Positions 4,387 through 43,023 of a stretch of 64,000 bases of DNA are shown here, in pieces. The position numbers and the translations under genes were made by a program. A model generated the notes under the pieces. It had not been told where the DNA came from, did no database searches, and saw nothing but the letters and a program-made list of their open reading frames with translations. Positions within the stretch are counted from its first letter, which is position 1, and every line of letters begins with the position of its first letter. This DNA is from a virus. The DNA lies in IMG/VR virus record IMGVR_UViG_3300005841_000036, positions 4,398-68,397 of that record. One strand, 5' to 3'.

Positions 4387-5336
4387 AAATCGGACTCATC
4401 GGCCGAGCCGACCTCTCGGGCCTCGGCTACATGACGCGGGATTTCTGCGACCACCTTCCGGTCGAGAAAGCCTTGATCGTCTCGCGCGAGGGGCGCGGCC
4501 CGAACTCCCTCGACCAAATCCTCGCCCGGCATCGCATGATGACGAGCAACACGTTCCGGCAAGAGGATATCGAATTCCTGTTTGACGGAATCGATGTGCT
4601 GGTCGGATTCGAGACGTTCTACCATCCGGACGTGATCCCCGAGGCAGTCGCCCGCGGGATCAAAGTGGCGATGTTCCCTATGTGGGAATGCTCGCCGCCC
4701 GAGGTCTGCGCGGCCGACTACCTGTTTTGCGTTACGGATCGCGAGCGGGCCCGCTTCCCCTATCGGGCAGATACGATCCGGGTTGACTGGCCGATGGAAC
4801 CCCCGCCCGGCTGGAAGCAACAGGCCAGGCAGCGACCGTTGCGAGTGGTCGCCTGCGCGGGATCCGGGGGGCTGCACGACCGGAACAACGTCGAAAGCCT
4901 CAAGGCGCTTCGACAGGCGGCCGACGCCGGTCGGGCGGATGGATGGACGTTCGATTTGCGGGAGTTTTCGACCGATCGCTCGAGGTGGGCGCAGTACGCC
5001 AATGCCGATCTGTTCGTGCACCTGCAGGCGTTCCACGGGCTATCCCTCCCGCTTCTCGAGGCCGCGGCGTGCGGCGTGCCTTGCGTGGTTCTCGACATCC
5101 CGGGCTTTCGTGAGGAATATACCTCGTCGTGCCGGGTGGGAGTTGGGGCGATGTTCGATCGCGAAATGATGGGCGAGCGGGTGACGTTCGCGAGGCCTGA
5201 CCCGTCCGGGCTGATCCGGACGATCAACCGCCTGGCGTATACCGTCCAGATTCCGCCGGCACCGCGGCCGGGGACCTGGGCAGAGTTCGTGGAGATCTGG
5301 ACCAAGCACGTCGGCCCTCTGGAGTCCGCACAATGA
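4383..5336 (+). CDS. glycosyltransferase (GT4-like)
   Basis: YANADLFVHLQAFHGLSLPLLEAAACGVPCVVLDIPG signature. Confidence 0.8.
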   Translation: MKIGLIGRADLSGLGYMTRDFCDHLPVEKALIVSREGRGPNSLDQILARHRMMTSNTFRQEDIEFLFDGIDVLVGFETFYHPDVIPEAVARGIKVAMFPMWECSPPEVCAADYLFCVTDRERARFPYRADTIRVDWPMEPPPGWKQQARQRPLRVVACAGSGGLHDRNNVESLKALRQAADAGRADGWTFDLREFSTDRSRWAQYANADLFVHLQAFHGLSLPLLEAAACGVPCVVLDIPGFREEYTSSCRVGVGAMFDREMMGERVTFARPDPSGLIRTINRLAYTVQIPPAPRPGTWAEFVEIWTKHVGPLESAQ

Positions 5337-12125: not shown

Positions 12126-12655
12126 GAGGGCCCCGCGGTGAGGTACTTTTGAGAGGCAATGGCCCAAGCAGCGTTCCAGGTCGACCAGTTCTCGCGATCG
12201 CCGCCGAGGTCGACCTCTTGACCGTTCAGCCTCATTGCCTCATCCATCGCCATATTGGCATCACAGAAATCGTGCGAGTGGCAGATCGACGCATTCGGCT
12301 CAGCCTGATTCCGCTGGCGCATCTCCTCAAATTCCTCGGGGGTCAGCCAGTCGCGCAGGATGGCGGCGAAGCTGCTGGCGATTTGCTCCTCGAGGGGAAC
12401 GATATTCAGATACCTAGTCCCCCACGCCGAGACAGCAAACCCTCCTCCTCTGGGAATGAGGCGATCGAGCGGAATCGCCTCGGGCGACGTTTTGGAATGC
12501 GAGACGGTCTTGATCGCCCTCCATTCGGCATTGTAGGGACCGACTGCAGTAACCTCGCCGATGAGGTGATAGCTATCGACCCCCTTCTCGCCATTCGGAC
12601 CTGACCACGGGCGGGAGCCTCTGACGCTGACCAGAAGGCCGATTGCGAGCGACAT
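12116..12655 (-). CDS. hypothetical phage protein
   Basis: ICHSHDFCDANMAMDEA segment; coupled to neighbours. Confidence 0.6.
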   Translation of the reverse strand: MSLAIGLLVSVRGSRPWSGPNGEKGVDSYHLIGEVTAVGPYNAEWRAIKTVSHSKTSPEAIPLDRLIPRGGGFAVSAWGTRYLNIVPLEEQIASSFAAILRDWLTPEEFEEMRQRNQAEPNASICHSHDFCDANMAMDEAMRLNGQEVDLGGDRENWSTWNAAWAIASQKYLTAGPSCG

Positions 12656-12924
12656 TAGACCGCACCCCCTTTCACCGGCCCCGCGGGAAGGTCCGGTCCA
12701 ACCCATTTGAGCAACTCGCCGCCGGCGGTCCGCTCGACCAGCCTAGCCCGCTCCAGCGTCGCCAGCATACGATCGTAACTCTCGAGGTCCATTCCCGTCT
12801 TGGCCATCAGCATCGCGTACAGGGGGCCCGAGGGAAGGCCGGCCGGGCCTGCCATGCGGACGGCCTCGGCAACGGCGGTCGAAACGAGAAAGGCGTGCTT
12901 GATCTGGTTCGCGGTGATCGTCAT
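12655..12924 (-). CDS. small winged-helix-like protein
   Basis: GLPSGPLYAMLM...LATLERARLVER; RBS AAGGA. Confidence 0.55.
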   Translation of the reverse strand: MTITANQIKHAFLVSTAVAEAVRMAGPAGLPSGPLYAMLMAKTGMDLESYDRMLATLERARLVERTAGGELLKWVGPDLPAGPVKGGAV

Positions 12925-12991
12925 GGGTCGCATTCCTTGAACGAGGGGAGAAAGGGGCGAGGGGCAACGAGCCCCCCACCCGACGCACTGA

Positions 12992-13231
12992 CTACTTTTT
13001 GAGACTGCACTTTTTGACACTGCACGCGTGTTCGGAAAGAAACATCTTGATAGCCTCTAGGTCGGTTTTGACCCGATAGTCCCTTGAATAACCGAAGTGC
13101 TGACCGCTACAGGTCTTGTGGGCCTGTTCCCATTTCGTTTCGGGATAGGTGTAAACCGTGATTTCTTTGACCCCATTATGAAAGCCGGTCGGATGGGAGA
13201 CCTCGACCTTGTAGACCTTGCTGATGGCCAT
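12992..13231 (-). CDS. hypothetical protein (first gene of leftward operon)
   Basis: MAISKVY..., GGAG RBS, lower GC. Confidence 0.55.
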   Translation of the reverse strand: MAISKVYKVEVSHPTGFHNGVKEITVYTYPETKWEQAHKTCSGQHFGYSRDYRVKTDLEAIKMFLSEHACSVKKCSLKK

Positions 13232-15706: not shown

Positions 15707-15909
15707 GAATTTACACATTCGACGCCAAGGATCCGCTGCACGACAACGGGCGACATCTGGCGATCATTCGCGCCGGAACGCTCAAGGCGGCGGAGAAGAA
15801 ATTGGCACGCCTCACCGAAAGCAAGCGACCAGGTCGCCCGCTTGATTGGCGGCTGCAAGTGGATCAAGCCGACTATGCAGACATCGTTTTCGAGGACATC
15901 GAAAGCTAA
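15703..15909 (+). CDS. hypothetical protein
   Basis: ATGA-coupled short ORF. Confidence 0.5.
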   Translation: MRIYTFDAKDPLHDNGRHLAIIRAGTLKAAEKKLARLTESKRPGRPLDWRLQVDQADYADIVFEDIES

Positions 15910-17366
15910 TGCTCCTCTGCGCCTTTTCGAAATCCGAAACGCTCGCCTCGCATATCCTCGAGGTTTGCCCGCTCGCGCTGAGTTCGGCAACGGCGAAGAA
16001 ATGCCCGTGCAAAAAGCGGCTCTATCATGTCGGCCCGTCTGATCTGCGGGTCCTGTCCTGCACGTTCCCTAACGACTGGAAAGGAAATCCGGTCCGGAAT
16101 CCCGAGGCCCTCGCCGCCAAGCTCCGCGAGAAGGTGAAGGCGGCCAGGCCCTCCAAAGCAACGAAGCAAGCGCGGGAATTGCTCCCGCCCCTGCAACCAC
16201 TCCCGACAACTCTCGAATTTGAGGAGGAACGAATGGCAGACGATGAAGAAGCGGCCGAGGACAACGCCGGCGGCGAGATTGTGGTCGACCTCAAGAATCA
16301 AATCCCGGTCGGATCACTGACGCTCCGCGGGGACGTCTACGATCGCATTAGTGACCCGATGGAGTTCGTGAAGAACTTCGGCACGGCGATCTATGCGTCG
16401 AAAATGTTCGGCTGCCACAATCCGCAGCAGGGCATGGTCTTTGCGATGGCCTGCCTGGCCGAGAAGTCCAACCCGATCGCGATCAAGCGCCGATATCACA
16501 TCATCGGGGGGAACCTCTCAATGCGGTCCGATGCGATGCTCGCCGAGTTCCGCATGAACCACGGGGGGACTCACGAGATCATCGAGCGCACGCCCGAGGC
16601 GGCCGAGATCGAACTGCGGAAGGGAAGCCAGAAGCCCTACCGGCTGCGGTTTACCTGGGCCGAGGCCGAGGCCGAGCCGTTCGTTTGGGGCAAGGATGAG
16701 AAGGGCAAGAAGATCATCAAAACGAACTACGCCACGCCGCGGGCTCGCATGCAAATGCTCTGGGCGAGGGTGGCATCGGACGCGGTCCGTTCGTACTGCC
16801 CCGAGGTCAACGCGGGAGTTTACACGCCCGAGGAAATGGGCGGTCCGCTGGCCGAGTATGAGGAGGCCGAGTTCGAGGTGAAGGCCGCGGCGCCGGTCGA
16901 TCCGGTCGCCCACGCCAAGCCCAAGCCCGAGAAGGCGGCCGACAAGCCCTCGCCGTCGGCAGCGACCGAGGAGGCCCCTTTCCGCGAAGCGATCAAAGAC
17001 GACATCGCCAAGATGCAGGCGCAGAATGCCGCGGCGGCTGCCAGCAAGCCCGCGGAGTCGATCGCCTCGAGCGGGAAGGGATCCGGCAAGGTCTCCCGCG
17101 AAACGCTGATCGAGATCAAGAAGATCAAGGACGCGCTGCAGTACGGCGACGACACTTGGAAAAAGATCCTCGACAAACTCGGCGTCGCCAGTGCGAAGGA
17201 CCTCGACCAGGATGGCGGCGACCGATTGCTCGCCTATCTCGGGAAACGGCAGCACGACGTCGAAGCCGCACGCAAGCAGGCGGCCGGCGTCGACGAGCTC
17301 TCGACCTGGGCGAACGGGCAACTCAGCCCAAACCAGAAGCCCGGCGAGGCTACCCCGGGCAAGTAG
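15909..17366 (+). CDS. RecT-like single-strand annealing protein
   Basis: YHIIGGNLSMRSDAM, FTWAEA, MLWARVASDAVRSYCPEV..GVYTPEEM; alternative strong start at 16233 (GAGGAGG RBS). Confidence 0.7.
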   Translation: MLLCAFSKSETLASHILEVCPLALSSATAKKCPCKKRLYHVGPSDLRVLSCTFPNDWKGNPVRNPEALAAKLREKVKAARPSKATKQARELLPPLQPLPTTLEFEEERMADDEEAAEDNAGGEIVVDLKNQIPVGSLTLRGDVYDRISDPMEFVKNFGTAIYASKMFGCHNPQQGMVFAMACLAEKSNPIAIKRRYHIIGGNLSMRSDAMLAEFRMNHGGTHEIIERTPEAAEIELRKGSQKPYRLRFTWAEAEAEPFVWGKDEKGKKIIKTNYATPRARMQMLWARVASDAVRSYCPEVNAGVYTPEEMGGPLAEYEEAEFEVKAAAPVDPVAHAKPKPEKAADKPSPSAATEEAPFREAIKDDIAKMQAQNAAAAASKPAESIASSGKGSGKVSRETLIEIKKIKDALQYGDDTWKKILDKLGVASAKDLDQDGGDRLLAYLGKRQHDVEAARKQAAGVDELSTWANGQLSPNQKPGEATPGK

Positions 17367-17529
17367 AAGAGTGGCCGCAGCAACTGCAGACGATGGTTCG
17401 AGAGTACGGGCCGGCGAGAGTGTACGAAGCCGGTATCGAAGCCCTGAAATACCCCCCGCACTGGATTGAGTCGAGCGACGAAGCGGTGCGGGTGGTGCGA
17501 CGACTTCTCAAGAAAGGAAACTGATCAGC

Positions 17530-18318
17530 ATGGCCAGGAAGCAAAAAGACGCCGAGGATGACGGATGGGGCGGCACGGTCGAAGGCGACGAGATGAATTT
17601 TGACATGGACTCGACCGGCGTTTCCGGCGAGGACCTCGGCAGCGGCGAGGGCCAGGTCGAGAAAGAGGGGTGGTATCACTGGGAGATCGGCGACGTTTCC
17701 CCCGAGCTCGACAAGGTGAAGGATAACGGCAAGTTTACGACGCCGAACATCCGTTTTGACATGATCGTTTTGGAGACGGTCGAGGGCCAGTCGCCCGCGA
17801 ATTCTCGTCTCTTTCATCGGATGTACCTCTGCAAGGTCGACAAGGACTCGGGCGACGTTTCGGAGATCTCCGAGGGATCGAAGAAAAACGCCTTGCGGTT
17901 CGGAATCGGCCTCGGGCTGCTGGCGGAAAAGGAGGACGGGACGATCGTGGTCGCCGAGACGCTCAAGGACGCCAAGACCGGCGCCGTGATCGCTGAGGCA
18001 GGATCGACCAAGATTCCCACGAAGCTCTGGTTGTTCGCGAAGGGCCGACAGTGCGTCTCGAAAGTCGCCCTCGAGGCCAGCGAAAATCCGGCCTACAAAG
18101 CGGCCTATAAGATTCCGTTTTCGCGGGTCTACCCGGTCGACCACCCGAGCGTTGCCGACGTTCCCAAGAACGCCGAAATGCTCGAGCTCATCGGCAAGGG
18201 CGACTTGGTCAAGAAGCCGGCGGCGAAGGGGGCGAAGGCCCCGGCCAAGAAGGCGGCGCCCGGCAAGCCAGCGGCGGCTGCGCAGTCGGCCGCGGTAGAT
18301 GATCTGGCCGATCTGTAG
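17530..18318 (+). CDS. putative single-stranded DNA-binding protein (DUF669-like)
   Basis: EGWYHWEIGDV motif, acidic tail DDLADL, follows recombinase. Confidence 0.55.
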   Translation: MARKQKDAEDDGWGGTVEGDEMNFDMDSTGVSGEDLGSGEGQVEKEGWYHWEIGDVSPELDKVKDNGKFTTPNIRFDMIVLETVEGQSPANSRLFHRMYLCKVDKDSGDVSEISEGSKKNALRFGIGLGLLAEKEDGTIVVAETLKDAKTGAVIAEAGSTKIPTKLWLFAKGRQCVSKVALEASENPAYKAAYKIPFSRVYPVDHPSVADVPKNAEMLELIGKGDLVKKPAAKGAKAPAKKAAPGKPAAAAQSAAVDDLADL

Positions 18319-18475
18319 GACGGCGCTATCCCTGCCCGGTGTCTGGTGCGAGGCTCAATCCGCACCACCCGCCCCCGGATTCACCGGGCAGGTTTCGCAA
18401 CCGTCCACTAGGGATCGCCGACGTGCTGGTCCGGATCAGGCTTGTCGTCTGACCGGGTTGGCGGTGATCTCTCTA
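18318..18475 (+). ncRNA. candidate structured intergenic RNA
   Basis: Nested inverted repeats: CCTGCCCGGTG/CACCGGGCAGG, GGTGCG/CGCACC, GGACGG/CCGTCC, plus a second long hairpin. Confidence 0.35.
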
Positions 18476-18541
18476 TTGCCCCGCGCCGGCCGGGTGTGGA
18501 AAGCCGGCAACGTTTCACTTTCAGCCTTTCAGGGATGCGCC

Positions 18542-19006
18542 ATGAAAGATCTGCCATATGCCAGCGCTACGAGCGGCGATCGCGCCCTCGGCGAGGCTCA
18601 GTCGATCCTTTCGAGGTTCGGCTGCACGCAATTCGGGATCATGCACGACACGGAACGCGGCGAGTTGCGACTGCAGTTCGTGCATCAGGGCCGCACGGTC
18701 GATTTCCGGGCAAGCTGGAAAGGCTATGCCGCGGCGTGGCTCAAGGCCAAGCCCTACACCCACCGCATGCGAGGCAGCAGGCAGGCATACGAGGCCAAGG
18801 CGATCGAGCAGGCCAAGATCTCGGTTTGCTCCGTGCTGCGAGATCTGGTCAAAGCGCAGGTGACGGCGATCGAGGCCGGGATCCTCTCGTTTGAGGGCGC
18901 TTTCCTCGGTCAGATCTTGCTGGCTAGCGGCCAGAGCGTTTCCGAGTACGTGCAGGCGGCGGCGATCATCCCGCCGGCGGAAACGAAGAAGCTCGAGGCG
19001 AAGTAA
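18542..19006 (+). CDS. conserved hypothetical phage protein
   Basis: ILSRFGCTQFG...RDLVKAQVTAIEAGILSFEGAFL, typical of phage replication-region proteins. Confidence 0.7.
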   Translation: MKDLPYASATSGDRALGEAQSILSRFGCTQFGIMHDTERGELRLQFVHQGRTVDFRASWKGYAAAWLKAKPYTHRMRGSRQAYEAKAIEQAKISVCSVLRDLVKAQVTAIEAGILSFEGAFLGQILLASGQSVSEYVQAAAIIPPAETKKLEAK

Positions 19007-20061
19007 TGGCCAAAAAATCCGACATCATCGGAACGATCGATCGGATCAAGTGGCGGGCGCCCGATTCAAACTACGTGATCGCCGGCCTCGAGGACGGAAC
19101 GACCATCGTCGGCAACGCGGCCGAGGGCGATCTCTTCCCTGGCATCACCTACCAATTTTTCGGGGACTGGGATGAGAATGCAAAATTCGGCCGGCAGTTC
19201 AAGTTCGTGCAGTTGGTCAAGCAGGAACCGCACTCGCGACACGGCGTTGTCTGCTACCTCGCACGCTACGCGCCCGGAGTCGGGAACGGGATCGCGGCGC
19301 AGCTGTTCGACGCATTCGGGTCAACTGCGGTGCAGGTCCTCCGAACGGATCCCGAACAAGCCGCGCGGCGGTGTCCGCGGCTGACGATCGAGAAAGCAAA
19401 GCTCGCATCGCAAGCCCTCAAGCAGCTGCTGCGGCTCGAGGATACAAAGATCGATCTAACGAATCTATTCGCCGGCCGCGGGTTCAATACGACCTTGGTC
19501 GACGCGGTGGTCGCAAAGTGGGGCATCCTGGCGCCGGAGCGCGTTCGGCGCGATCCATTCTCGCTGCTGGTGCACGGATTTGCCTCTTGCGGGTTCGCCC
19601 GGTGCGATCGCCTCTATGCCGACCTCGGCCTGCCACAGGAAAAGATCAAGCGACAAGTGATCTGCCTTTGGCATGTTTTGCGGGAGGAATCAAACGGCAG
19701 CACTTGGCACGACTCCCGCGCGGTGGTCCGGAAGATGGCCGAGGCGGTCGGCGGCGTGACAACCAGGCCCGGCCGGGCGATCAAGGTCGGGGTGCGAGCG
19801 GGCTGGATCGCGGTGAAGGTCGACGCCGAGGGCCGGCGATGGCTGGCCGAGGGTCAGAAGGCGAAAAACGAGAAGTTCCTGGCGGAACGGATTTCGGAAC
19901 TCATCACAAACGCAGGAGGCGAAAATGCTGGTCCTATCGCGCAAAGAGGGAGAGAAGATCATCGTGGGGAGCGGCGAGAACACGGTCAAAATTACGGTGA
20001 CGCTGATCAAAGGGAATCGAGTCAAAATCGGCGTCGAGGCCCCGCGCGGAATCCCGATTGA
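19006..20061 (+). CDS. RecD2-like helicase, N-terminal part
   Basis: GTIDRIKW, GDWDENAKFGRQFKF, PGVGNGIA, DPFSLL..GFARCDRL; no Walker A. Confidence 0.82.
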   Translation: MAKKSDIIGTIDRIKWRAPDSNYVIAGLEDGTTIVGNAAEGDLFPGITYQFFGDWDENAKFGRQFKFVQLVKQEPHSRHGVVCYLARYAPGVGNGIAAQLFDAFGSTAVQVLRTDPEQAARRCPRLTIEKAKLASQALKQLLRLEDTKIDLTNLFAGRGFNTTLVDAVVAKWGILAPERVRRDPFSLLVHGFASCGFARCDRLYADLGLPQEKIKRQVICLWHVLREESNGSTWHDSRAVVRKMAEAVGGVTTRPGRAIKVGVRAGWIAVKVDAEGRRWLAEGQKAKNEKFLAERISELITNAGGENAGPIAQRGREDHRGERREHGQNYGDADQRESSQNRRRGPARNPD

Positions 20062-20098
20062 TCGCGGGGAAGTCGCCGGGCGAAAGGTGGGGCAATGA
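19925..20098 (+). CDS. csrA: carbon storage regulator CsrA/RsmA
   Basis: Hand translation MLVLSRKEGEKIIVGSGENTVKITVTLIKGNRVKIGVEAPRGIPIDRGEVAGRKVGQ (57 aa, below ORF-track cutoff); AGGAGG RBS; ATGA overlap with next gene. Confidence 0.9.
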   Translation: MLVLSRKEGEKIIVGSGENTVKITVTLIKGNRVKIGVEAPRGIPIDRGEVAGRKVGQ

Positions 20099-21405
20099 TC
20101 TGGCCGGATCCCTCGAGCCTCACCGCTTCATCACCTCACCAGCAAGAGACGTGGGGCCGCGCCTCGAGCGCGGGCCGAGTCGCGATCCTCACCGGGGGCC
20201 CTGGGACTGGCAAGACGACCACGGCGGCCGAGGTCCTCAAGCAGTGCGCGAAAACGGTCGGGCTGTCGAATGTCGCCGTCTGCAGTCCGTTCGGCAAAGC
20301 CGCGGTGAAGATCACGGCGAGCATGAACGCCGCGGGCCTCGAGTGCGAGGCGACGACCATTCACCGATTGCTTGGCGTGACTCGCAACGGGCACGACAAA
20401 GGCGGGTGGGGGTTCCGGTTCAACGCCGGCAATCCCCTGCCCTATCGGGTCCTGGCGATCGAGGAGTCCTCGACCCTCGGCGTCGACCTGGGGGCAAGCC
20501 TCTTCTCGGCGATCCACCCGGGCACCCACGTTTTACTTCTCGGGGATGACGGGCAACTGCCACCGGTCGAGCATGGCGCCGTTTTGCGGGATCTCAAGGC
20601 GGCCGGGCTACCGCACGGGGAACTCCTCGAGATCTGGCGGAACGACGGCGACATCGTGAAGGCCTGCCAGGCGATCCGCGCGGGTCGACCGTGGCGAGCA
20701 TCGCGCGAGATCAACATTCCGGCCGGGCAAAACCTACGACACTGCGAGACGGCGAAAGTTCCGGTCGCACTGCGGCATCTCGAGAGATTCCTGGCGACCG
20801 CCCCGACGGGGATTGATCCCATCTGGGACGTCCAGGTCCTTTGCACGGTCAACGAAAAGTCGCCCCTCGGGCGGAAGGATCTAAACGCACGGCTCCGCGA
20901 GTTCCTCAACTCCGCGGGCCGGCGGATCGACAAGCATCCTTTCCGGGTGGGCGACAAGGTGATCTGCCTATCGAATTCGATGCTCCCTCTCGACTCTGGC
21001 GACGGGCTGCAGTTCGAGGACGATGGAGCGATCGAGGAATTCGTCGCGAACGGCGAGATCGGCCGAGTGACGTACATAGAGCCGAAATTATCGATCGTGA
21101 AGTTCGACGCGCCGGCGCGGACCGTGCGAGTCGTTGGCGGCTGGCATGACTCGTTCGATCTGGCCTACGCGATCACCACGCACAAGAGCCAGGGGAGCCA
21201 ATGGCCAGTCGTAATCTACATGAGCGACGACTATCCCAGCGCGAGGCGAACATCCTCGAGGCAGCTTGTCTATACGGCACTTTCCCGAGCGGAAAAACTG
21301 TGCGTTACCATCGGCCGGAAATCGACGATCGATTTGGACTGCAAGCGCGACGCGCTGGTCGGTCGAAAGACGTTCCTTGCCGAGATGATCGAGAGGGCCG
21401 CATGA
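20095..21405 (+). CDS. RecD-like SF1B helicase core
   Basis: TGGPGTGKTT, PFGKAA, TIHRLL, GDDGQLPPV, AYAITTHKSQGSQW, YTALSRA. Confidence 0.9.
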   Translation: MIWPDPSSLTASSPHQQETWGRASSAGRVAILTGGPGTGKTTTAAEVLKQCAKTVGLSNVAVCSPFGKAAVKITASMNAAGLECEATTIHRLLGVTRNGHDKGGWGFRFNAGNPLPYRVLAIEESSTLGVDLGASLFSAIHPGTHVLLLGDDGQLPPVEHGAVLRDLKAAGLPHGELLEIWRNDGDIVKACQAIRAGRPWRASREINIPAGQNLRHCETAKVPVALRHLERFLATAPTGIDPIWDVQVLCTVNEKSPLGRKDLNARLREFLNSAGRRIDKHPFRVGDKVICLSNSMLPLDSGDGLQFEDDGAIEEFVANGEIGRVTYIEPKLSIVKFDAPARTVRVVGGWHDSFDLAYAITTHKSQGSQWPVVIYMSDDYPSARRTSSRQLVYTALSRAEKLCVTIGRKSTIDLDCKRDALVGRKTFLAEMIERAA

Positions 21406-21722
21406 ATCGAGTAATCTTGAAATTCAACATCAGCAAGGGCGAGCATCATCCGGACGGCGGCGTGATCGTCAAGATTCCCGCGGGGGCGAAGCTGCTGCGA
21501 ATCGGCCGGGATGGGAATAGCCCGCAGTCGCCCGTAGGCGCGTCCGGCTGCGCGTGGTACTTCGTTCCGTTGCCGGCGAGAGAATATCAGGCGTTCGTAT
21601 TCCTGACCCTCGGCACGGGCGAGTGGTTCTCTGCGGCCGAGGGCGAGTATCTCGGAAGCTGGGAGGAACGCAACGATTTTGGTTGGTTTATCTGGCATGT
21701 ACTCGCCCGGCCGCACGTATGA
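21402..21722 (+). CDS. hypothetical phage protein
   Basis: IPAGAKLL...GTGE...YLGS...IWHV pattern; ATGA-coupled. Confidence 0.6.
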   Translation: MNRVILKFNISKGEHHPDGGVIVKIPAGAKLLRIGRDGNSPQSPVGASGCAWYFVPLPAREYQAFVFLTLGTGEWFSAAEGEYLGSWEERNDFGWFIWHVLARPHV

Positions 21723-21946
21723 CCTCCCCCGTTAAATGCTACTGCTGCGGGCGATTCGTCTCGCGCAAGAAGTCCTTTTCGACCGTCACTGGCGAGCGTA
21801 TCTGCCGACGGTGCGAGTACGCTTTCACCCGACCTCGAGGGAAACTGCCCCGCGCCCCCCTCGGGAAAATCGTTCACTATCCGCAGATCAAGATCTCACC
21901 GATTCCGCGCCCCGAGGATGCCAATGGTACTCGACTCGAAGATTGA
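21719..21946 (+). CDS. small Zn-finger protein
   Basis: CYCCG...CRRC. Confidence 0.5.
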   Translation: MTSPVKCYCCGRFVSRKKSFSTVTGERICRRCEYAFTRPRGKLPRAPLGKIVHYPQIKISPIPRPEDANGTRLED

Positions 21947-22796
21947 AAAGGTCAAGTTGCACTTTGGGATCGCTTCCCTCGATGACTGGCGCGACGTTAC
22001 CCCCGCCTGGATCCTGAACCTCGAGGGGATCGGCCAGGTGACTCTCGACCATATTCGCCTCTATCTGGCTTCGCATAATATCTCGCTGCGCGGCGACCAA
22101 ACGCCGGATTTCTGGCGGGCGCACCTCGGCGAGGCGAGGATCTGCCATCAGATGGCCGACGAGGATCGATACGACGTCGTTAATTTTACGATCGTTATCG
22201 ACAAGCGAGAGCAGCATCCCTTTACGTTCCAGGGCATCGAATCCGACGCCAAGGGATCCCGCCGGCCGATGTTCATTCCGACCAAGCCGGGGACGCTTCC
22301 CTCGGGCGACTACTCGGTCGCCGGCCTCGAGCATGCGGTCGCCGTGGAGCGGAAAAGCCTGGTCGACCTATACGGGACGATCGGCGCCGGGCGGGATCGG
22401 TTCGTCCGCGAGCTCGAGCGGCTCGACCAGATGGAATTCGCCGCGGTGGTGATCGAGGCAGGATGGCCGGCGATCATCGGCAACCCGCCCCCCTCTTCCA
22501 AGGTCTCGCCAAAGGTGATTTATCGATCGATCATCGCCTGGGGGCAGCGATTCCCGCGGGTGCACTGGTGGCCATGCCCGCATAGGACGTTCGCCGAGCG
22601 AACTACTTTCCGGATTCTGCAGCGGTTTTGGACGGACGTGATGGACGGAAAGCGATCATCCGGCCCGGCCGCGAGGTTCGACGGCGACATCGACAAGATT
22701 CCGGATGATAGCATTCCGACCAGTCCGGCCGAGGAAAGCGCGGAACGGTCAGAAGGCGAGCAGAATTCCCTTGCGGACGATGGTGAATTCTTCTAA
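21918..22796 (+). CDS. ERCC4/XPF-domain nuclease
   Basis: IVIDKREQ, GDYS, AVERKSLVDL, RFVRELERL; N-terminal LEGIG HhH-like. Confidence 0.85.
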   Translation: MPMVLDSKIEKVKLHFGIASLDDWRDVTPAWILNLEGIGQVTLDHIRLYLASHNISLRGDQTPDFWRAHLGEARICHQMADEDRYDVVNFTIVIDKREQHPFTFQGIESDAKGSRRPMFIPTKPGTLPSGDYSVAGLEHAVAVERKSLVDLYGTIGAGRDRFVRELERLDQMEFAAVVIEAGWPAIIGNPPPSSKVSPKVIYRSIIAWGQRFPRVHWWPCPHRTFAERTTFRILQRFWTDVMDGKRSSGPAARFDGDIDKIPDDSIPTSPAEESAERSEGEQNSLADDGEFF

Positions 22797-22937
22797 CATC
22801 CTCAAGCCGACAGTTGCTAGCCCAAAACAAACGCCCCCGCCCCCGCGCGGCATCTTTGGCGGCTGTCGGCAAAACTCCACTTCTGACGCCCGCGGGGGCA
22901 TTTTCAGATCATCGGCAAACCCCAAGGACGCCGAACC

Positions 22938-25724
22938 GTGGCCGACCTCTCCAGAAAATGGATCGAAGCAAACCGCGCGATCCTCGACGCGGTGGACATC
23001 GAGCAGGAATATCGCCGGTGCGGCGTCCGGATCCCCGAGCGATCCAAGCCGAGGGCAACCGGCTGGCTTCCCGTGCATGCCGTCGGCCGCGACGACGACA
23101 CGCCCTCGGCCGAGATCAACGTCGGCGACGGGCCCCCGCGCGGGCGATACCGCGACTTTGGCGGGAACGGGGAAACCCTCGGCTTTTTCGACTTTGTCGC
23201 TAAGTTCATGCCGGGGGCCGGCGGCGACTGGCGAGCCGCGCGCAAGCACTACGCCCAGCAGACGAAAATCAAGCTCCCCTCGGGCGACGATACTTGCCCG
23301 CAGGACAAATTCGAGTTTTTCGACTTAACGCCCGGCGCGGCCCTCGGCTGGACCAGCAAAAAACCGGGGATCAAGGCCTCGGCGGTGATGGCTTGCGGGG
23401 GACGTGGCGCCCGATGGCCGAAGGGACTCCGCGCGGAACTGACGCACTGCCTGATCGTGTTCCCGATGTTCGGCGCCGGCGGCCTCGACCTCGAGCCTCA
23501 GGCGTGGCATTGCGTGAACTCGACCGGCCAGAAAATCCGGAAGTTCAAGGGCGAGGGGAACGAGCCGGACCTCCTCAAAACGATGACCGTCGGGCCCCCT
23601 GGGATCATGGGGGTCGCCGGCCTGCGCGGTCTGGCCGCGGCCCGGGTGGTCTGGCTGACCGAGGGGATATCGGACCTCCTCGCGCTGCAGACGATGCTCT
23701 CGGCCCTCCCCGAAGAGGTGCAGGCGGATCACGTAGTCCTGTCGTTCGGCGCCGCGACCTACCATTGCCGAGCGGACTGGATCCCCCTGTTTATGGGGAA
23801 GGATGTTCGGTTCGTCTACGATGCCGACAAGCCCGGGCAGGCCGGGGCGCTCGCCTCGATCGCCGCGGTGATCCGCTCCGCGGCCAAGGTGCGCAACGTC
23901 CAGCTACCCTACGAAATCGGCGAGAATCACGGCAAAGACCTTCGCGACTACATCCTCGAGGGTCGGACTTTCGACGACCTCTGCGATCTGGCCGAGCGCC
24001 AGGCGCCGATCGACCCGGGGACCGCGGCCGACGCGCTGGTCGAACCCCACAAACTACTCCTCGAGCAGCTTGGAATCATCGTTTGCGGCCAGGTCGAGGG
24101 GACCGAGGCAATCGAGATTTTCTCGACGAAACTGCACAAAAAGACGCTGGTGCGCGATATCGATAAGCTCTCGTTTGCGAAAGGAATCCTCTCCCTCGGC
24201 GGCGACGTGATGGATACCTACGTAACGGATTCGCGCGAGGGCGAGCCCGGTAAGTACTCGATGGGCGAAGTCCGGAACGCCGTCGCGCGCGAGGCCGGCA
24301 AAATGTTCCTCTCGCATCAGCCCGACGTCGGATCCGGAATCTGGCCGGTCGAGGACTCGCTGGTCCTGGTCGGGCCGCGGTCTGCCGACATCTGGAACGG
24401 CAAGAAGCAACTCGAACAAATCTTGATGCCGGCGGTGAAAGGCCAGCGGTTGGATTTCGGCGGGGAGCAGTGGTACGACCGCGAAAAGCTGGGGCGGCTC
24501 CTCGAGCGCGCGGCCGATCTCAAGTGGTGCCAAGCGGTCCTCGACGAAGCGATCAACCTGTTCGACAAATGGGACAATTGGCGGCGGCCATCGAGTCCGT
24601 GGGTCCTCGCCGGCCTGGCCTGCGCGTCCTGGATTCAAACGACCTGGGATTTTCGGCCCCAGGTCGCCGTGATCGGTCCGACCAACTCGGGAAAATCCTT
24701 CCTGGTCGAAAAGACCCTGCCGAAGATCTTCGCGAACCTCTGCCTCCCCTGCCAGCGGTCGACCGAGGCCGGGATCCGGCAGGTGATCGGCAACACGGGC
24801 CAGATCTTGATAATCGACGAGTTCGAGGACGACGCGAACCGCAAGAAGATCCTCGATATGTTCCGGACCTCGAGCCGCGGCGGCCGCATGGTGCGCGGCA
24901 CGCGAGACCAACGCCCGGGCGGCCAGAATTTCGGCCTAAAACATATCGCTTGGGTGTCCTCGATCGAGCTCAACCTAACCCGCGAGCCCGACGCCAACCG
25001 GTTTATCATCCTCGAGCTAGCCAAGGTGACCGGGCCGGCAAAGCTGGTCCTGCCGGATCCCGAGGTCCTCGCCGACCTGGGGCAGAAGCTCCTTGCCGTG
25101 GCGATCCGGCACTGGCGGGAGATGACCCGCCTTTCAACCGCCATGAAGTCCCGAGACATGGGGGGGGTGTCGAATCGCATCGTCGAGGTGTATTCGGTGC
25201 CGGTCGCCGTCCTGGCCCATATCAGAGGGTACGGGCACGACGAGACCGCCCAGCTGCTGCGCCAAGTGATCGGAGACCTCGACCGGCCGGACTCGAGGGA
25301 GTCGGAAGAGGAGCAGCTACTCCGGGCCATCTACGAGGCCACCGTGATCCTCCCGAGGGGTTCCCGGGTGATGTTCTCCCAATTGCTCCAGGACCAAGTC
25401 CTCGAGGACGGTGACGGCCTTGCGGTCGACCGGCGGAAGCTGATCAACGCCCTTGGGGTGAAACTGGTCGAAATCCCACCCGATCGGCCCGAGGATCCCG
25501 AGAAAATCGGGATGTTTTTCGCTAAGTCCATTCTGTGTAAGGAATTGCTGAAAAACACCGAATGGGCGAGCAAGGACGTCAACCAAATGCTCCTCCGGAT
25601 CCCGGGTGCGAAGGGTGCCCAAATGCAGCGGCTGGGGTCGCACGTTTCCCGCGGGGTGGTGATCCCTCTCGATCAGCTAAACAAGCTGGTCGAGCTCAAA
25701 TTGGACGTCGCGAGGCTGTTTTGA
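22938..25724 (+). CDS. primase-helicase (TOPRIM + P-loop NTPase)
   Basis: LTEGISD and YDADKPG TOPRIM motifs, KDLRDY, GPTNSGKS Walker A, ILIIDEFE Walker B. Confidence 0.85.
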   Translation: MADLSRKWIEANRAILDAVDIEQEYRRCGVRIPERSKPRATGWLPVHAVGRDDDTPSAEINVGDGPPRGRYRDFGGNGETLGFFDFVAKFMPGAGGDWRAARKHYAQQTKIKLPSGDDTCPQDKFEFFDLTPGAALGWTSKKPGIKASAVMACGGRGARWPKGLRAELTHCLIVFPMFGAGGLDLEPQAWHCVNSTGQKIRKFKGEGNEPDLLKTMTVGPPGIMGVAGLRGLAAARVVWLTEGISDLLALQTMLSALPEEVQADHVVLSFGAATYHCRADWIPLFMGKDVRFVYDADKPGQAGALASIAAVIRSAAKVRNVQLPYEIGENHGKDLRDYILEGRTFDDLCDLAERQAPIDPGTAADALVEPHKLLLEQLGIIVCGQVEGTEAIEIFSTKLHKKTLVRDIDKLSFAKGILSLGGDVMDTYVTDSREGEPGKYSMGEVRNAVAREAGKMFLSHQPDVGSGIWPVEDSLVLVGPRSADIWNGKKQLEQILMPAVKGQRLDFGGEQWYDREKLGRLLERAADLKWCQAVLDEAINLFDKWDNWRRPSSPWVLAGLACASWIQTTWDFRPQVAVIGPTNSGKSFLVEKTLPKIFANLCLPCQRSTEAGIRQVIGNTGQILIIDEFEDDANRKKILDMFRTSSRGGRMVRGTRDQRPGGQNFGLKHIAWVSSIELNLTREPDANRFIILELAKVTGPAKLVLPDPEVLADLGQKLLAVAIRHWREMTRLSTAMKSRDMGGVSNRIVEVYSVPVAVLAHIRGYGHDETAQLLRQVIGDLDRPDSRESEEEQLLRAIYEATVILPRGSRVMFSQLLQDQVLEDGDGLAVDRRKLINALGVKLVEIPPDRPEDPEKIGMFFAKSILCKELLKNTEWASKDVNQMLLRIPGAKGAQMQRLGSHVSRGVVIPLDQLNKLVELKLDVARLF

Positions 25725-40458: not shown

Positions 40459-43023
40459 ATGTCCCACCGACCGCCCCCGCGCCCTCGGCGCACGCCCGAG
40501 GAACTGCAAGACCTGGTCGCACTCACCGCGACGCCCGGCCTATTCGCGTCCTATGTCTCGGGCGGCCGGTGGGTGATGGCGCCGCACCTCGCCTACCTCG
40601 ACAAGATCATTACTGACGGGATCGCCGGCCGAGGATCAAAACGCCTAATCGTCTCCATGCCCCCTCGGCACGGGAAAGCGCTGGCGGTTGATACGCCTAT
40701 TCCGATTCCTGGGGGGTGGACGACTATTGGAGAATTGAGTCCTGGCGATGATGTTTTCGACGAAGCCGGCCAGATTTGTCGCGTTGTTGGAAAGACGCCA
40801 GTCTGGAAGGATCGGCCGGTTTATCGTGTTACGACTGACTGCGGCGATGAGATTATCGCAGACGCCGAACATGAATGGGTTGTTCGCCTCGATCGGAAGT
40901 TCGGTGCGATCTCTACTCGCACGACGAAATTTCTGGCTGAAAGAACATGCGATCGGGCGCCAATGATCGCCGCGCAGGGCTCGCTCGACCTGCCGTATGT
41001 CGACCTGCCAATGGATCCATACATCCTCGGCGTCTGGCTGGGCGATGGGACTGCGACCAATGGGTCGATCACGACTGCCGATCCGGAGATCGTCGAAGCA
41101 ATTCGAGCGACAGAGGGCGAGGTCGCAGAGTGGAAGTCTGTCAGCCGAGGACGCGCGGCATCCTACCGGCCAGGCCCCTCGCTTCGATCTCCAAATGTGC
41201 GGGCTGGCGATACTTTCCAGGGGCGATTGCGGGCAATGGGATTGCTTGGGAATAAACATATCCCGGCCGAGTACATGCGGGCATCGGCCGATCAGCGTCT
41301 ATCACTGCTGCAAGGCTTGATCGATACCGATGGGCACGTTGCGCCAGATGGGCAGGTCGAATTCTGCAACGTGAACGAATTATTAGCGAAGCAAGTTCGG
41401 GAGTTGGTCTATTCACTTGGGCACAAGGCCAGCATGATCGCAGGCCGGTCGATGCTCAATGGCGTTGATCATGGGCCGAAATATCGCGTGATGTTCTACA
41501 TGAAAGACGCTGCCAGGCTGCCGAGAAAAGCGGCCAGGACTCGCGATGGGTTGCGAGCTTTCAGGCGATACATCACGGTCGAGCCGGCTGGAATTGCTGA
41601 CACAGTTTGCATCCAGGTCGACAGCCCGAATCATATGTTTCTGTGCGGCCGATCAATGCTGCCGACTCACAACAGTTGGTACCTCTCCCGCTATCTGCCC
41701 GCGTGGTTCCTGGGGACCTATCCCGATCGATCCGTGATGCTCGCCGGCTACGGTGCCAAGTTCGCCAAGGTCTGGGGCGCCCGGGCTCTCGCCGAGCTCT
41801 CGAGCAACGCAGACTTGTTCGATCTGATCGTTCCGCCCAAGCAGTCCGCCGAGCATTGGACGATCCCCGGGCGGGAAGGGTCAATGTGGACGTCGGGGGT
41901 GGGCGGGTCGATGACGGGCCGCGGTGCCGATCTGCTGATCATCGACGACCCGATCAAAAACCAGGAAGAGGCCGACAGCGAGGCCTATCGCGAATCGACG
42001 TGGCAGTGGTGGATGACGACCGCCCGCTCGCGCCTCGAGCCGAACGGGATGATCCTGATCGTGCTGACCAGGTGGCACGAGGACGATCTGGCCGGGCGGA
42101 TCCTGTCGGGCAAGTATGTCTCGCAGGACGATGCCGCATGGGCGGACAAATGGGACGTTGTTTCCCTCCCCGCGCTGGCCGAGGCGAACGATCCGCTTTC
42201 TCGACGCCCGGGCGATCCCCTCTGGCCGCAGCGGTACTCGGAGCGGGCGCTACGGGCGATCAAAGGCGGGATCACGCCGCGGGCCTGGGCTGCGCTCTAC
42301 CAGCAGAATCCGCAGCCTCTCGAGGGAGGGTTGTTCGCGCGCGACGACTGGCGGACCGTCTACGCGCTGCCAGATCTCGAGTACGTCCACAACTGGGTTC
42401 GATACTGGGACAAAGCCGGAACGCCTGGCGCCGGGGACTTCTCGGCCGGCGTGCTTATGTGCGAGTGGCAAGGCACGTTCTTCGTGGTCGACGTGGTCCG
42501 CGGCCAGTGGAGCGCTTCGCAGCGCGAGGCGGTGATCCGCTCGACCGCCCATCGAGATCGGACCATGTACGGGCAGGCGGTCGAGACGTGGGTCGAGCAA
42601 GAGCCGGGGTCGGGCGGGAAGGAATCGGCCGAGTCCTCGGTGAAGAACCTGGCCGGGTTCATTGTCTATGCCGAGCGAGTCACCGGCGAGAAGGCGGTCC
42701 GCGCGGGCCCGCTCGCCTCGCAAGTGCAGATGCACAACGTGGCGATCCTCAACGCGCCATGGAATGAAGCTTTCTTGCTGGAAATGCAGGGTTTCCCGAA
42801 CTGGAAGAATGACGATCAGGTCGACGGCGCGAGCGGGGCATTTAACAAGCTATGCGCGAAAACGTTCCCCGCCCTCCAGACTGAGGCTATAGTGGCGGAA
42901 CGGCGAGAGGTGGAACGGCCGGACGAATCCGGCGGCCGGTTTGGTGTCTCGAGCAGATCGGCAGGGTCGCCGCGGTTCGGGATTGGTGGCGGGAGCGGTG
43001 CGAGAGTTTTCCGGAGACAGTAG
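40459..43023 (+). CDS. terL: terminase large subunit (intein-containing)
   Basis: MPPRHGK|S Walker A, TGRGADLLIIDDPIK Walker B, TRWHEDDLAG, LYQQNP, YWDKA, EQEPGSGGK, DDQVD. Confidence 0.95.
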   Translation: MSHRPPPRPRRTPEELQDLVALTATPGLFASYVSGGRWVMAPHLAYLDKIITDGIAGRGSKRLIVSMPPRHGKALAVDTPIPIPGGWTTIGELSPGDDVFDEAGQICRVVGKTPVWKDRPVYRVTTDCGDEIIADAEHEWVVRLDRKFGAISTRTTKFLAERTCDRAPMIAAQGSLDLPYVDLPMDPYILGVWLGDGTATNGSITTADPEIVEAIRATEGEVAEWKSVSRGRAASYRPGPSLRSPNVRAGDTFQGRLRAMGLLGNKHIPAEYMRASADQRLSLLQGLIDTDGHVAPDGQVEFCNVNELLAKQVRELVYSLGHKASMIAGRSMLNGVDHGPKYRVMFYMKDAARLPRKAARTRDGLRAFRRYITVEPAGIADTVCIQVDSPNHMFLCGRSMLPTHNSWYLSRYLPAWFLGTYPDRSVMLAGYGAKFAKVWGARALAELSSNADLFDLIVPPKQSAEHWTIPGREGSMWTSGVGGSMTGRGADLLIIDDPIKNQEEADSEAYRESTWQWWMTTARSRLEPNGMILIVLTRWHEDDLAGRILSGKYVSQDDAAWADKWDVVSLPALAEANDPLSRRPGDPLWPQRYSERALRAIKGGITPRAWAALYQQNPQPLEGGLFARDDWRTVYALPDLEYVHNWVRYWDKAGTPGAGDFSAGVLMCEWQGTFFVVDVVRGQWSASQREAVIRSTAHRDRTMYGQAVETWVEQEPGSGGKESAESSVKNLAGFIVYAERVTGEKAVRAGPLASQVQMHNVAILNAPWNEAFLLEMQGFPNWKNDDQVDGASGAFNKLCAKTFPALQTEAIVAERREVERPDESGGRFGVSSRSAGSPRFGIGGGSGARVFRRQ
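40678..41673 (+). mobile_element. class 3 intein with LAGLIDADG homing endonuclease (332 aa)
   Basis: Starts ALAVDTPIP, ends LPTHN/S; HEW, TVCIQV, PTHN; LGVWLGDG and LQGLIDTDG. Confidence 0.92.

Follow-up and report, generated by a model that had tools for sequence, protein, structure and literature searches.

A RecD2-like helicase gene in two pieces, with a csrA-family gene overprinted at the break, in a phage genome

How does a helicase gene come to lie in two pieces in a phage genome, with the gene for a small regulator at the break? This question is raised by a 64-kb stretch of DNA (64,000 nt, hereafter the window) that covers positions 4,398 to 68,397 of the IMG/VR virus record IMGVR_UViG_3300005841_000036, a 68,397-bp record with direct terminal repeats. 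In the window, the N-terminal domains of a RecD2-like helicase (the N-half) and its helicase core are encoded by separate open reading frames (ORFs), and a csrA-family gene lies at their junction. A preliminary description of the window had explained this arrangement by the insertion of csrA at the domain linker of an otherwise undivided gene. Here, we show that the arrangement itself holds, but that its explanation is likely to be a different one: the helicase gene is in pieces at a recurrent insertion site, and csrA is the current cargo of that site. The locus contains the following features.

19006 to 19924, + strand: conserved part of the recD2-like N-half (OB_YrrC, HHH_RecD2, TIGR01448 positions 1-294), with an OB fold and a helix-hairpin-helix (HhH) region
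19006 to 20061, + strand: whole N-half ORF, 351 aa, with its TGA at 20059-20061
19880 to 19924, + strand: csrA leader within the N-half coding sequence, with four GGA at 19884, 19889, 19896 and 19915
19914 to 19919, + strand: csrA Shine-Dalgarno (SD) sequence AGGAGG, which contains the last GGA of the leader; the ATG is 5 nt downstream
19925 to 20098, + strand: csrA-family gene, 57 aa, identified by PF02599, PHROG 9500, the alignment to 1y00 and its signature of GC at third codon positions (GC3)
19925 to 20061, + strand: overprinted stretch, in which the last 45 codons of the N-half ORF run out of the csrA frame, as seen in the codon-position GC
20084 to 20098, + strand: core start region, with an SD-like AAGGTGGGG at 20084-20092 followed by ATGA at 20095-20098
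20095 to 21405, + strand: RecD2-like superfamily 1B (SF1B) helicase core, 436 aa, with domains 1A, 1B, 2A and SH3-like 2B

The identities of these genes and the position of csrA are established. The N-half matches the Pfam families OB_YrrC (aa 6-75, E 8.8e-11) and HHH_RecD2 (aa 151-233, E 2.4e-11) and covers positions 1-294 of the 713 positions of the RecD2 model TIGR01448. The core covers positions 327-709 of the same model (E 8.4e-71), contains the Pfam domains AAA_30, AAA_19 and UvrD_C_2, and aligns to residues 202-563 of D. radiodurans RecD2 (3e1s, E 4.7e-35). It keeps the Walker A motif GGPGTGKT as well as the motifs GDDGQLPPV, THKSQGSQ and YTALSRA. These matches bear out that the RecD2 N-terminal domains and the helicase core are separate ORFs: the OB/HhH module and the helicase core lie on separate products rather than on the single polypeptide by which RecD2 is defined. 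The N-half ORF ends at 20061, 34 nt before the core ATG. The 57-aa csrA overlaps it by 137 nt, or about 45 codons, and the csrA TGA shares the ATGA at 20095-20098 with the core ATG, exactly as the preliminary description had read the junction.

The csrA product is missing from a large protein database that contains both helicase halves, which agrees with the earlier remark that gene calling had overlooked it. Its assignment to the CsrA family was confirmed by a hidden Markov model match to Pfam PF02599 (E 9.2e-18, 64.4 bits with a cut-off of 27, model positions 1-48 of 53) and by a match to PHROG 9500, 'CsrA-like regulator' (E 1.4e-14). Over residues 1-53, the protein aligns to E. coli CsrA (1y00) apart from a single insertion of 3 residues; the MLVLSR N-terminus and the equivalent of Arg44 are kept, and IPIDRGEV faces VSVHREEI. 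Among the residues of strands beta1 and beta5 that we take to bind RNA in the E. coli protein (L2, L4, R6, V40, V42, R44 and I47), V40 and V42 are replaced by Ile and I47 by Val. When the overlap is read in the csrA frame, its codon-position GC (positions 1/2/3) of 0.63/0.40/0.75 resembles that of the genes of the phage; read in the frame of the N-half ORF, it is 0.76/0.56/0.38. This shows that csrA is the selected frame, and the end of the N-half ORF appears to be incidental. The last 45 codons of this ORF are thus probably an unselected read-on tail, and among the stand-alone N-half clusters compared, no relative's N-half aligns to it.

The best matches of this CsrA have 51-64% identity and include proteins on contigs of 1.1-1.8 Mb, two of which are named Planctomycetota or Pirellulaceae. 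In tblastn searches, the protein is 36.5% identical to the csrA product of a related phage (L007), and 41 cultured-phage records match it at 37-45% identity. The csrA of the window is thus closer to cellular than to phage copies. Small CsrA-family proteins on mobile elements are known from the phage and plasmid CsrA/Rsm homologues surveyed by Sobrero & Valverde (2020, PMC7366521), from PHROG 9500 and from PTXU04 gp28 (PMC11879866); csrA is present in 30 of 2517 phage genomes (PMC7366521), and plaques became smaller upon knock-down of a phage csrA (PMC11879866). Unlike in those cases, the csrA gene here sits between the two halves of a helicase gene, with an overprint on the first and an overlap with the second, and its product is nearer to cellular CsrA than to the CsrA of related phages.

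Next, we focused on the split. RecD2 had been described as normally one polypeptide. This is true of the cellular protein, but it does not hold in this phage clade, where stand-alone halves are common. Among the non-self matches listed for the core, 112 of 119 lack the N-terminal domains (349-666 aa) and 7 have them (742-763 aa). All 25 aligned closest core homologues begin within a few residues of a conserved Trp-Pro (WP), and the core in the window begins with MIWP. Stand-alone N-halves form 110 clusters of 223-550 aa. Several of those numbered P0237-P0289 (405-550 aa) bear an extra PF19474 domain, and the N-half gains further modules in some lineages. In fused relatives, 7-9 residues separate the last helix of the N-terminal module from the WP motif, and the break in the window falls inside that linker. 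An alignment with two fused relatives (L090 and L097) shows that the halves jointly cover an uninterrupted homologue with one break point. The break lies 2 residues before the conserved WP, which is also the point at which an HNH endonuclease is inserted in the relative L089.

At the DNA level, 173 loci were collected, 75 of which contain both halves; the other 98, without an N-half match, are mostly from distant relatives or from contigs that do not extend as far as the junction. The linker is fused in 54 of the 75 loci (one ORF) and split in 21 (two ORFs). Two of the splits are doubtful (L134 and L059), 4 have only 35-77 additional bases, and in 15 the insert at the same position amounts to 176-2,726 bases. 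On a FastTree phylogeny of 177 cores (125 split, 52 fused), the split or fused state changes at least 13 times, with 10 changes forced by well-supported branches, compared to a mean of 45 changes when the labels were shuffled. A quick IQ-TREE run on 64 rows, consisting of 62 DNA-verified rows together with P0002 and P0003, gave 7 changes, 3 of them forced; neither tree separates splitting from re-fusion. The window falls in a clade of 122 rows, 112 of which are split, and its nearest neighbours are P0002 (75% identity) and P0003 (69%). The safe statement from these phylogenies is that the state has changed several times and that the lineage of the window inherited a split gene. The split is a conserved family trait.

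This trait also bears on whether the apparent split and overlap were made by a chimeric join or a frameshift error in the assembly. The record does derive from a metagenome assembly, and the boundary between the N-half and csrA is bridged solely by a contig from the probable source sample (run X1). However, this 68,337-nt Logan contig, which was made by another assembler although not from independent data, spans positions 18500-21900 with 0 differences at a depth of 22, so that the same 3.4 kb was obtained twice; over this range, no joints, indels or variants are reported at the junction. A 341-nt contig from run X2, which belongs to a different study, matches 20013-20353 without a difference, across the junction between csrA and the core. 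Both contigs thus support the sequence across the junction, the assembly chimera considered in the preliminary description was not found, and we give an artefact a next to negligible chance.

If csrA did not accompany the split in most relatives, what did? The relatives' junctions contain a diverse cargo, with endonucleases at the same site. The L135 junction contains an HNH_3+AP2 homing endonuclease (PHROG 99, E 3e-42). In L089, an HNH endonuclease (E 3e-31) is fused to the end of the N-half: it starts directly after the linker, and the core restarts at MMWP. As L089 clusters, with good support (98), with L090 and L150, which are both fused, it is a direct example of an endonuclease that splits the gene at this linker. 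Furthermore, the database protein P0041 is a core fused to HNH+AP2. Other junctions encode a HicB-like protein (L083), a pentapeptide/DUF5758 protein (L108) or a Zn-ribbon protein (L098), the L123 junction comprises 2.7 kb with several genes, and others contain small ORFs without a family. Two fused relatives (L105 and L106, 2536-3000) have a 154-aa segment in frame at the junction that matches phrog_24928, a family of unknown function (E 5e-26), which indicates that cargo is also carried as an internal domain. A 50-aa junction ORF in L154 (2404-2556) resembles a small DNA-binding protein, and the core in L153 (2749-3000) has an 84-aa N-terminal extension. For the comparison of synteny in relatives that the preliminary description had proposed, the outcome is that the split recurs at the same point and that the cargo found there is not csrA.

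Several observations weigh against the reading of a two-piece RecD2 helicase with csrA as passing cargo. The halves score 102.9 and 239.1 bits, below the equivalog cut-off for RecD2 (500 bits). Motif II (Walker B, residues 121-127) of the core reads IEESS instead of the usual xDExS, a conservative Asp to Glu change that is common to P0002, P0003, P0013 and P0015 and is not found in the other aligned relatives. CsrA likewise scores below the cut-offs of both NCBIfam equivalog models for canonical CsrA (52.5 vs 73 for NF002469 and 47.5 vs 70.1 for TIGR00202), which makes it a divergent family member rather than a canonical orthologue. The length-based assignment of split and fused states may include truncated gene calls, as in the case of P0084, whose sequence hardly differs from that of the fused L097. 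Finally, a search for HNH_3 in the 68-kb phage record gave 0 matches, and no endonuclease or remnant of one was found there. As this phage has no endonuclease, we infer the origin of its split from its relatives.

The alternative put forward in the preliminary description is that csrA itself was inserted in an intact recD2 and so made the split, that synthesis of the core is tied to csrA, and that CsrA autoregulates through AGGAGG and thereby gates the helicase. The placement of csrA at the domain linker stands, as the linker of 7-9 residues shows. As the cause of the split, csrA fails, because relatives are widely split at this residue in its absence (112 of the 119 listed cores and about 110 N-half clusters). 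When 174 sources were searched with a CsrA profile, a csrA close to the helicase turned up only in the window and in L007, where recD2 is fused and is preceded by csrA at a distance of 2 kb. Among five further records of related phages, two place csrA 3-5 kb upstream of recD2, and one of these has two copies. In L175 (record G003, 12369-13084), a related phage or provirus, two CsrA-family ORFs lie about 0.5 kb apart upstream of a fused recD2, and the first has no Arg at the position of E. coli Arg44. From this distribution, csrA is a common accessory of the phage group, and its placement in the helicase slot is special to this phage, perhaps together with its nearest relative.

One point in favour of csrA comes from the nearest relatives. 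In P0193, the N-half that shares a contig with P0002, a shift of two bases allows the tail to be read as ATG-Leu-Val-Leu-Ser-Arg-Arg, which fits the overprinted M-L-V-L-S-R-R of the window, so csrA may be kept in a sub-clade. Compatibility with this overprint was found in only 6 of 73,884 position-by-shift tests on 110 N-halves: the window itself, the P0193 tail and four internal positions. The P0194 N-half ends in Glu-Cys-Ser-stop and fits ATG-CTC-xTG, but is too short for the overprint test. These fits lend moderate and indirect support to the view that csrA at the junction is common to the sub-clade of nearest relatives.

The arrangement of translation signals was examined in the same light. 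Between 19006 and 21405, no promoter- or terminator-like sites were found on the + strand, where counts were at or below those of shuffled sequences, so that one transcript is likely. csrA has the strongest ribosome-binding site of the module, and both this site and the ATGA overlap would fit a core that depends on csrA. Coupling of core translation to csrA by the ATGA overlap is plausible from the layout of the genes. However, the core owns an SD-like AAGGTGGGG 2-10 nt upstream of its ATG, and in relatives the cores follow other cargo, or nothing, with equally tight packing. Such coupling is thus not specific to csrA, and the claim that core translation depends on csrA as such does not hold, since at this very site relatives have a different cargo or no cargo.

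The csrA leader is rich in GGA, with 4 in 45 nt. At least four are found in only 0.49% of the 45-nt windows of the stretch, and the count is the highest of 28 gene starts (at most 2 in the others), but it was looked at after the data had been seen. Four GGA are present in 2 of 71 homologous stretches in relatives. No significant hairpin that would present GGA at the csrA SD was found (z-scores +0.5 to +1.5 vs shuffles), and the fold at the core start is no better than shuffles. The AGGAGG and the GGA-rich leader are thus a weak hint that CsrA may regulate its own synthesis. We regard it as unlikely that csrA made the split and gates the helicase.

Are the two halves still a working helicase? 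They look functional, because neither has internal stops, their GC3 is 0.77 and 0.80, and they are 72% and 75% identical to the halves of the nearest relative. If instead the halves were non-functional remnants of a decaying helicase and only csrA mattered, the replacement of the Walker B Asp by Glu and the unselected 45-codon tail of the N-half ORF could be signs of that decay. However, both frames are open with normal codon-position GC (0.65/0.45/0.77 in the N-half and 0.63/0.49/0.80 in the core), the two halves are about equally conserved, the remaining helicase motifs are intact, and the two-gene form persists over a clade of about 112 clusters. A structure prediction of the N-half and the core as a complex also passes its controls, with a score of 0.79 as compared to 0.00 for the best of three controls, although this pass may come from likeness to 3e1s. 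We therefore consider decay very unlikely.

In this prediction, the mark that the score has to reach was reached by 116 of 157 solved complexes and by 2 of 215 mismatched pairs, counts that hold roughly here, as our own alignments were used. At least 81% of contacts agree between runs, and the partners have a predicted local distance difference test (pLDDT) value of at least 82. The predicted interface consists of the last helix (residues 284-302) and residues 229-235 of the N-half, and of residues 130-163 and the conserved C-terminal RKTFL motif of the core. RecD2 was solved as one chain (3e1s), so the score may reflect likeness to that structure and is no proof of binding. The multimer prediction proposed in the preliminary description thus passes its controls, with the reservation that the pass may derive from this likeness.

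A split intein, an intron, ribosomal bypass or stop read-through might also yield a full-length helicase from the two ORFs after expression. The two halves do share a frame, with a single TGA at 20059 and no stop between 20062 and 20094, and fractured genes with split inteins that flank an endonuclease are known in phages (PMC2677866). However, the shared frame is found in 6 of 19 split relatives (the doubtful L134 and L059 left out), which is the level expected by chance. Pfam and Rfam searches of the locus gave no intein, Hint or intron signal, with only two sub-threshold chance matches to Rfam. N-halves extend 5-40 residues beyond their last conserved helix, and the cores begin 2-4 residues ahead of WP, leaving no room for intein fragments, and a bypass of 175 nt far exceeds the 50-nt hop described in bioRxiv 10.1101/2022.08.31.505936. 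This makes restoration extremely improbable.

We thus return to the likely reading, a helicase gene in pieces at a recurrent insertion site. In this phage group, the linker two residues before Trp-Pro would be that site: homing endonucleases would enter the linker and split the gene, as we infer for the window too, and the intergenic slot left by splitting would then hold a changing cargo. The N-terminal OB/HhH module and the SF1B motor would be made as two polypeptides that reassemble non-covalently. The csrA gene, which resembles cellular csrA of Planctomycetota-type bacteria, would be co-transcribed with the helicase halves. Ribosomes from the N-half ORF would pass through the csrA start and halt at 20061, whereas csrA ribosomes would halt on the core ATG, where termination-reinitiation could feed the core. 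By analogy with other CsrA proteins of phages and mobile elements, CsrA would most likely bind GGA in host, and perhaps phage, mRNA leaders and thereby reprogram translation during infection.

A bolder version of this reading, which we regard as quite unlikely, is that the linker is a heritable cargo slot in an essential gene, opened repeatedly by homing endonucleases and reused for nucleic-acid-binding regulators, with CsrA, bound to its own GGA-rich leader, throttling both itself and the motor half. The regulators would be CsrA here and HicB-like, Zn-ribbon and possibly helix-turn-helix proteins elsewhere, and the overlapping frames would lock regulator synthesis to both helicase halves. If this were true, replication would be tied to the state of the host Csr network.

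The locus lies within the replication and recombination module of a tailed phage, flanked as follows.

15846 to 19006, + strand: upstream flank, with a RecT-like protein (PHROG 561), and two proteins without a Pfam match, one of which matches phrog_17260
21402 to 25724, + strand: downstream flank, with DUF7352, an ERCC4-type nuclease and a 928-aa primase-helicase

The genes of this flanking module are all on the + strand, with stops and starts that overlap or abut. The genes around the locus encode a RecT-like annealing protein, an ERCC4-type nuclease, a primase-helicase, a DUF5131 protein, a DNA methylase and the large terminase. As the genome is that of a phage with terminal repeats, the helicase gene is a gene of the replication module and not a cellular recD2. 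Of the 28 relatives that come from bacterial genome records, 20 belong to records named as Planctomycetota lineages, and the length of some of their contigs (140 kb to 2.3 Mb) suggests prophages. The host of the phage is probably a member of the Planctomycetota. No close RecD2 was found in cultured phages, where all matches have at most 32% identity. Among viral contigs, a single-protein scan gave no close relatives and an alignment-based scan gave only relatives of at most 45% identity, the 7 closest of which are all fused. Elsewhere in the window, the 854-aa large terminase ORF (40459-43023, + strand) contains a LAGLIDADG_3 match at aa 279-325 (E 8e-7) and a weak Hom_end match; these endonuclease domains precede Terminase_6N, which begins only at aa 406. 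The terminase ORF thus probably contains an intein that encloses a homing endonuclease, and is a second indication that homing elements have been active in this phage.

How does this locus compare with known systems? Cellular RecD2 (TIGR01448, 3e1s) has the same domain order, which here is spread over two ORFs. Unlike the cellular protein, the helicase of the window consists of two polypeptides below the equivalog cut-off, has EE instead of DE in Walker B, and is phage-borne. In Aeromonas phage Aeh1, an essential gene of phage DNA metabolism is likewise broken in two by an inserted gene: nrdA is split by the free-standing endonuclease gene mobE and its pieces reassemble non-covalently without RNA or protein splicing. 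As here, the insertion creates new tails on the pieces (PMC3045599). In the window, however, the gene encodes a RecD2-type helicase and the insert is the regulator gene csrA, with endonucleases found at this position in relatives only; the gene is interrupted at a linker between domains and not within a catalytic domain, and the assembly of the pieces is predicted. Fractured genes (Dassa et al. 2009, PMC2677866) are similar in that they are mainly phage loci in which enzymes of DNA synthesis or repair are halved with a gene in between; they consist of split inteins around a free-standing endonuclease and come from phage metagenomes. In contrast, the halves in the window are without intein fragments, so there is no protein splicing, and the cargo is not an endonuclease.

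Because its cargo varies, the site in the linker also resembles other variable positions of phage genomes. Phage 'moron' or accessory slots hold variable small genes at a fixed position in otherwise syntenic phages. Here, unlike in such slots, the position lies within what is a single gene in other family members. We found no report of a split RecD2 or of csrA in Planctomycetes phages in open-access full text. A RecD2 whose two-piece form is fixed across a large clade of phages, a break point that is reused for varied cargo and a csrA overprinted there all appear to be new.

Gene callers miss an overprinted csrA, and annotation pipelines will under-count such small regulators. The csrA described here adds phages of Planctomycetota-type hosts to the known csrA-carrying elements. 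In addition, insertions can land repeatedly in one linker of a phage replication gene, where splitting by homing endonucleases can be followed by an exchange of cargo. If the predicted complex is right, this would be a natural and widespread SF1B helicase that works as two chains, which would bear on the role of the RecD2 N-terminal module and on how it docks on the motor.

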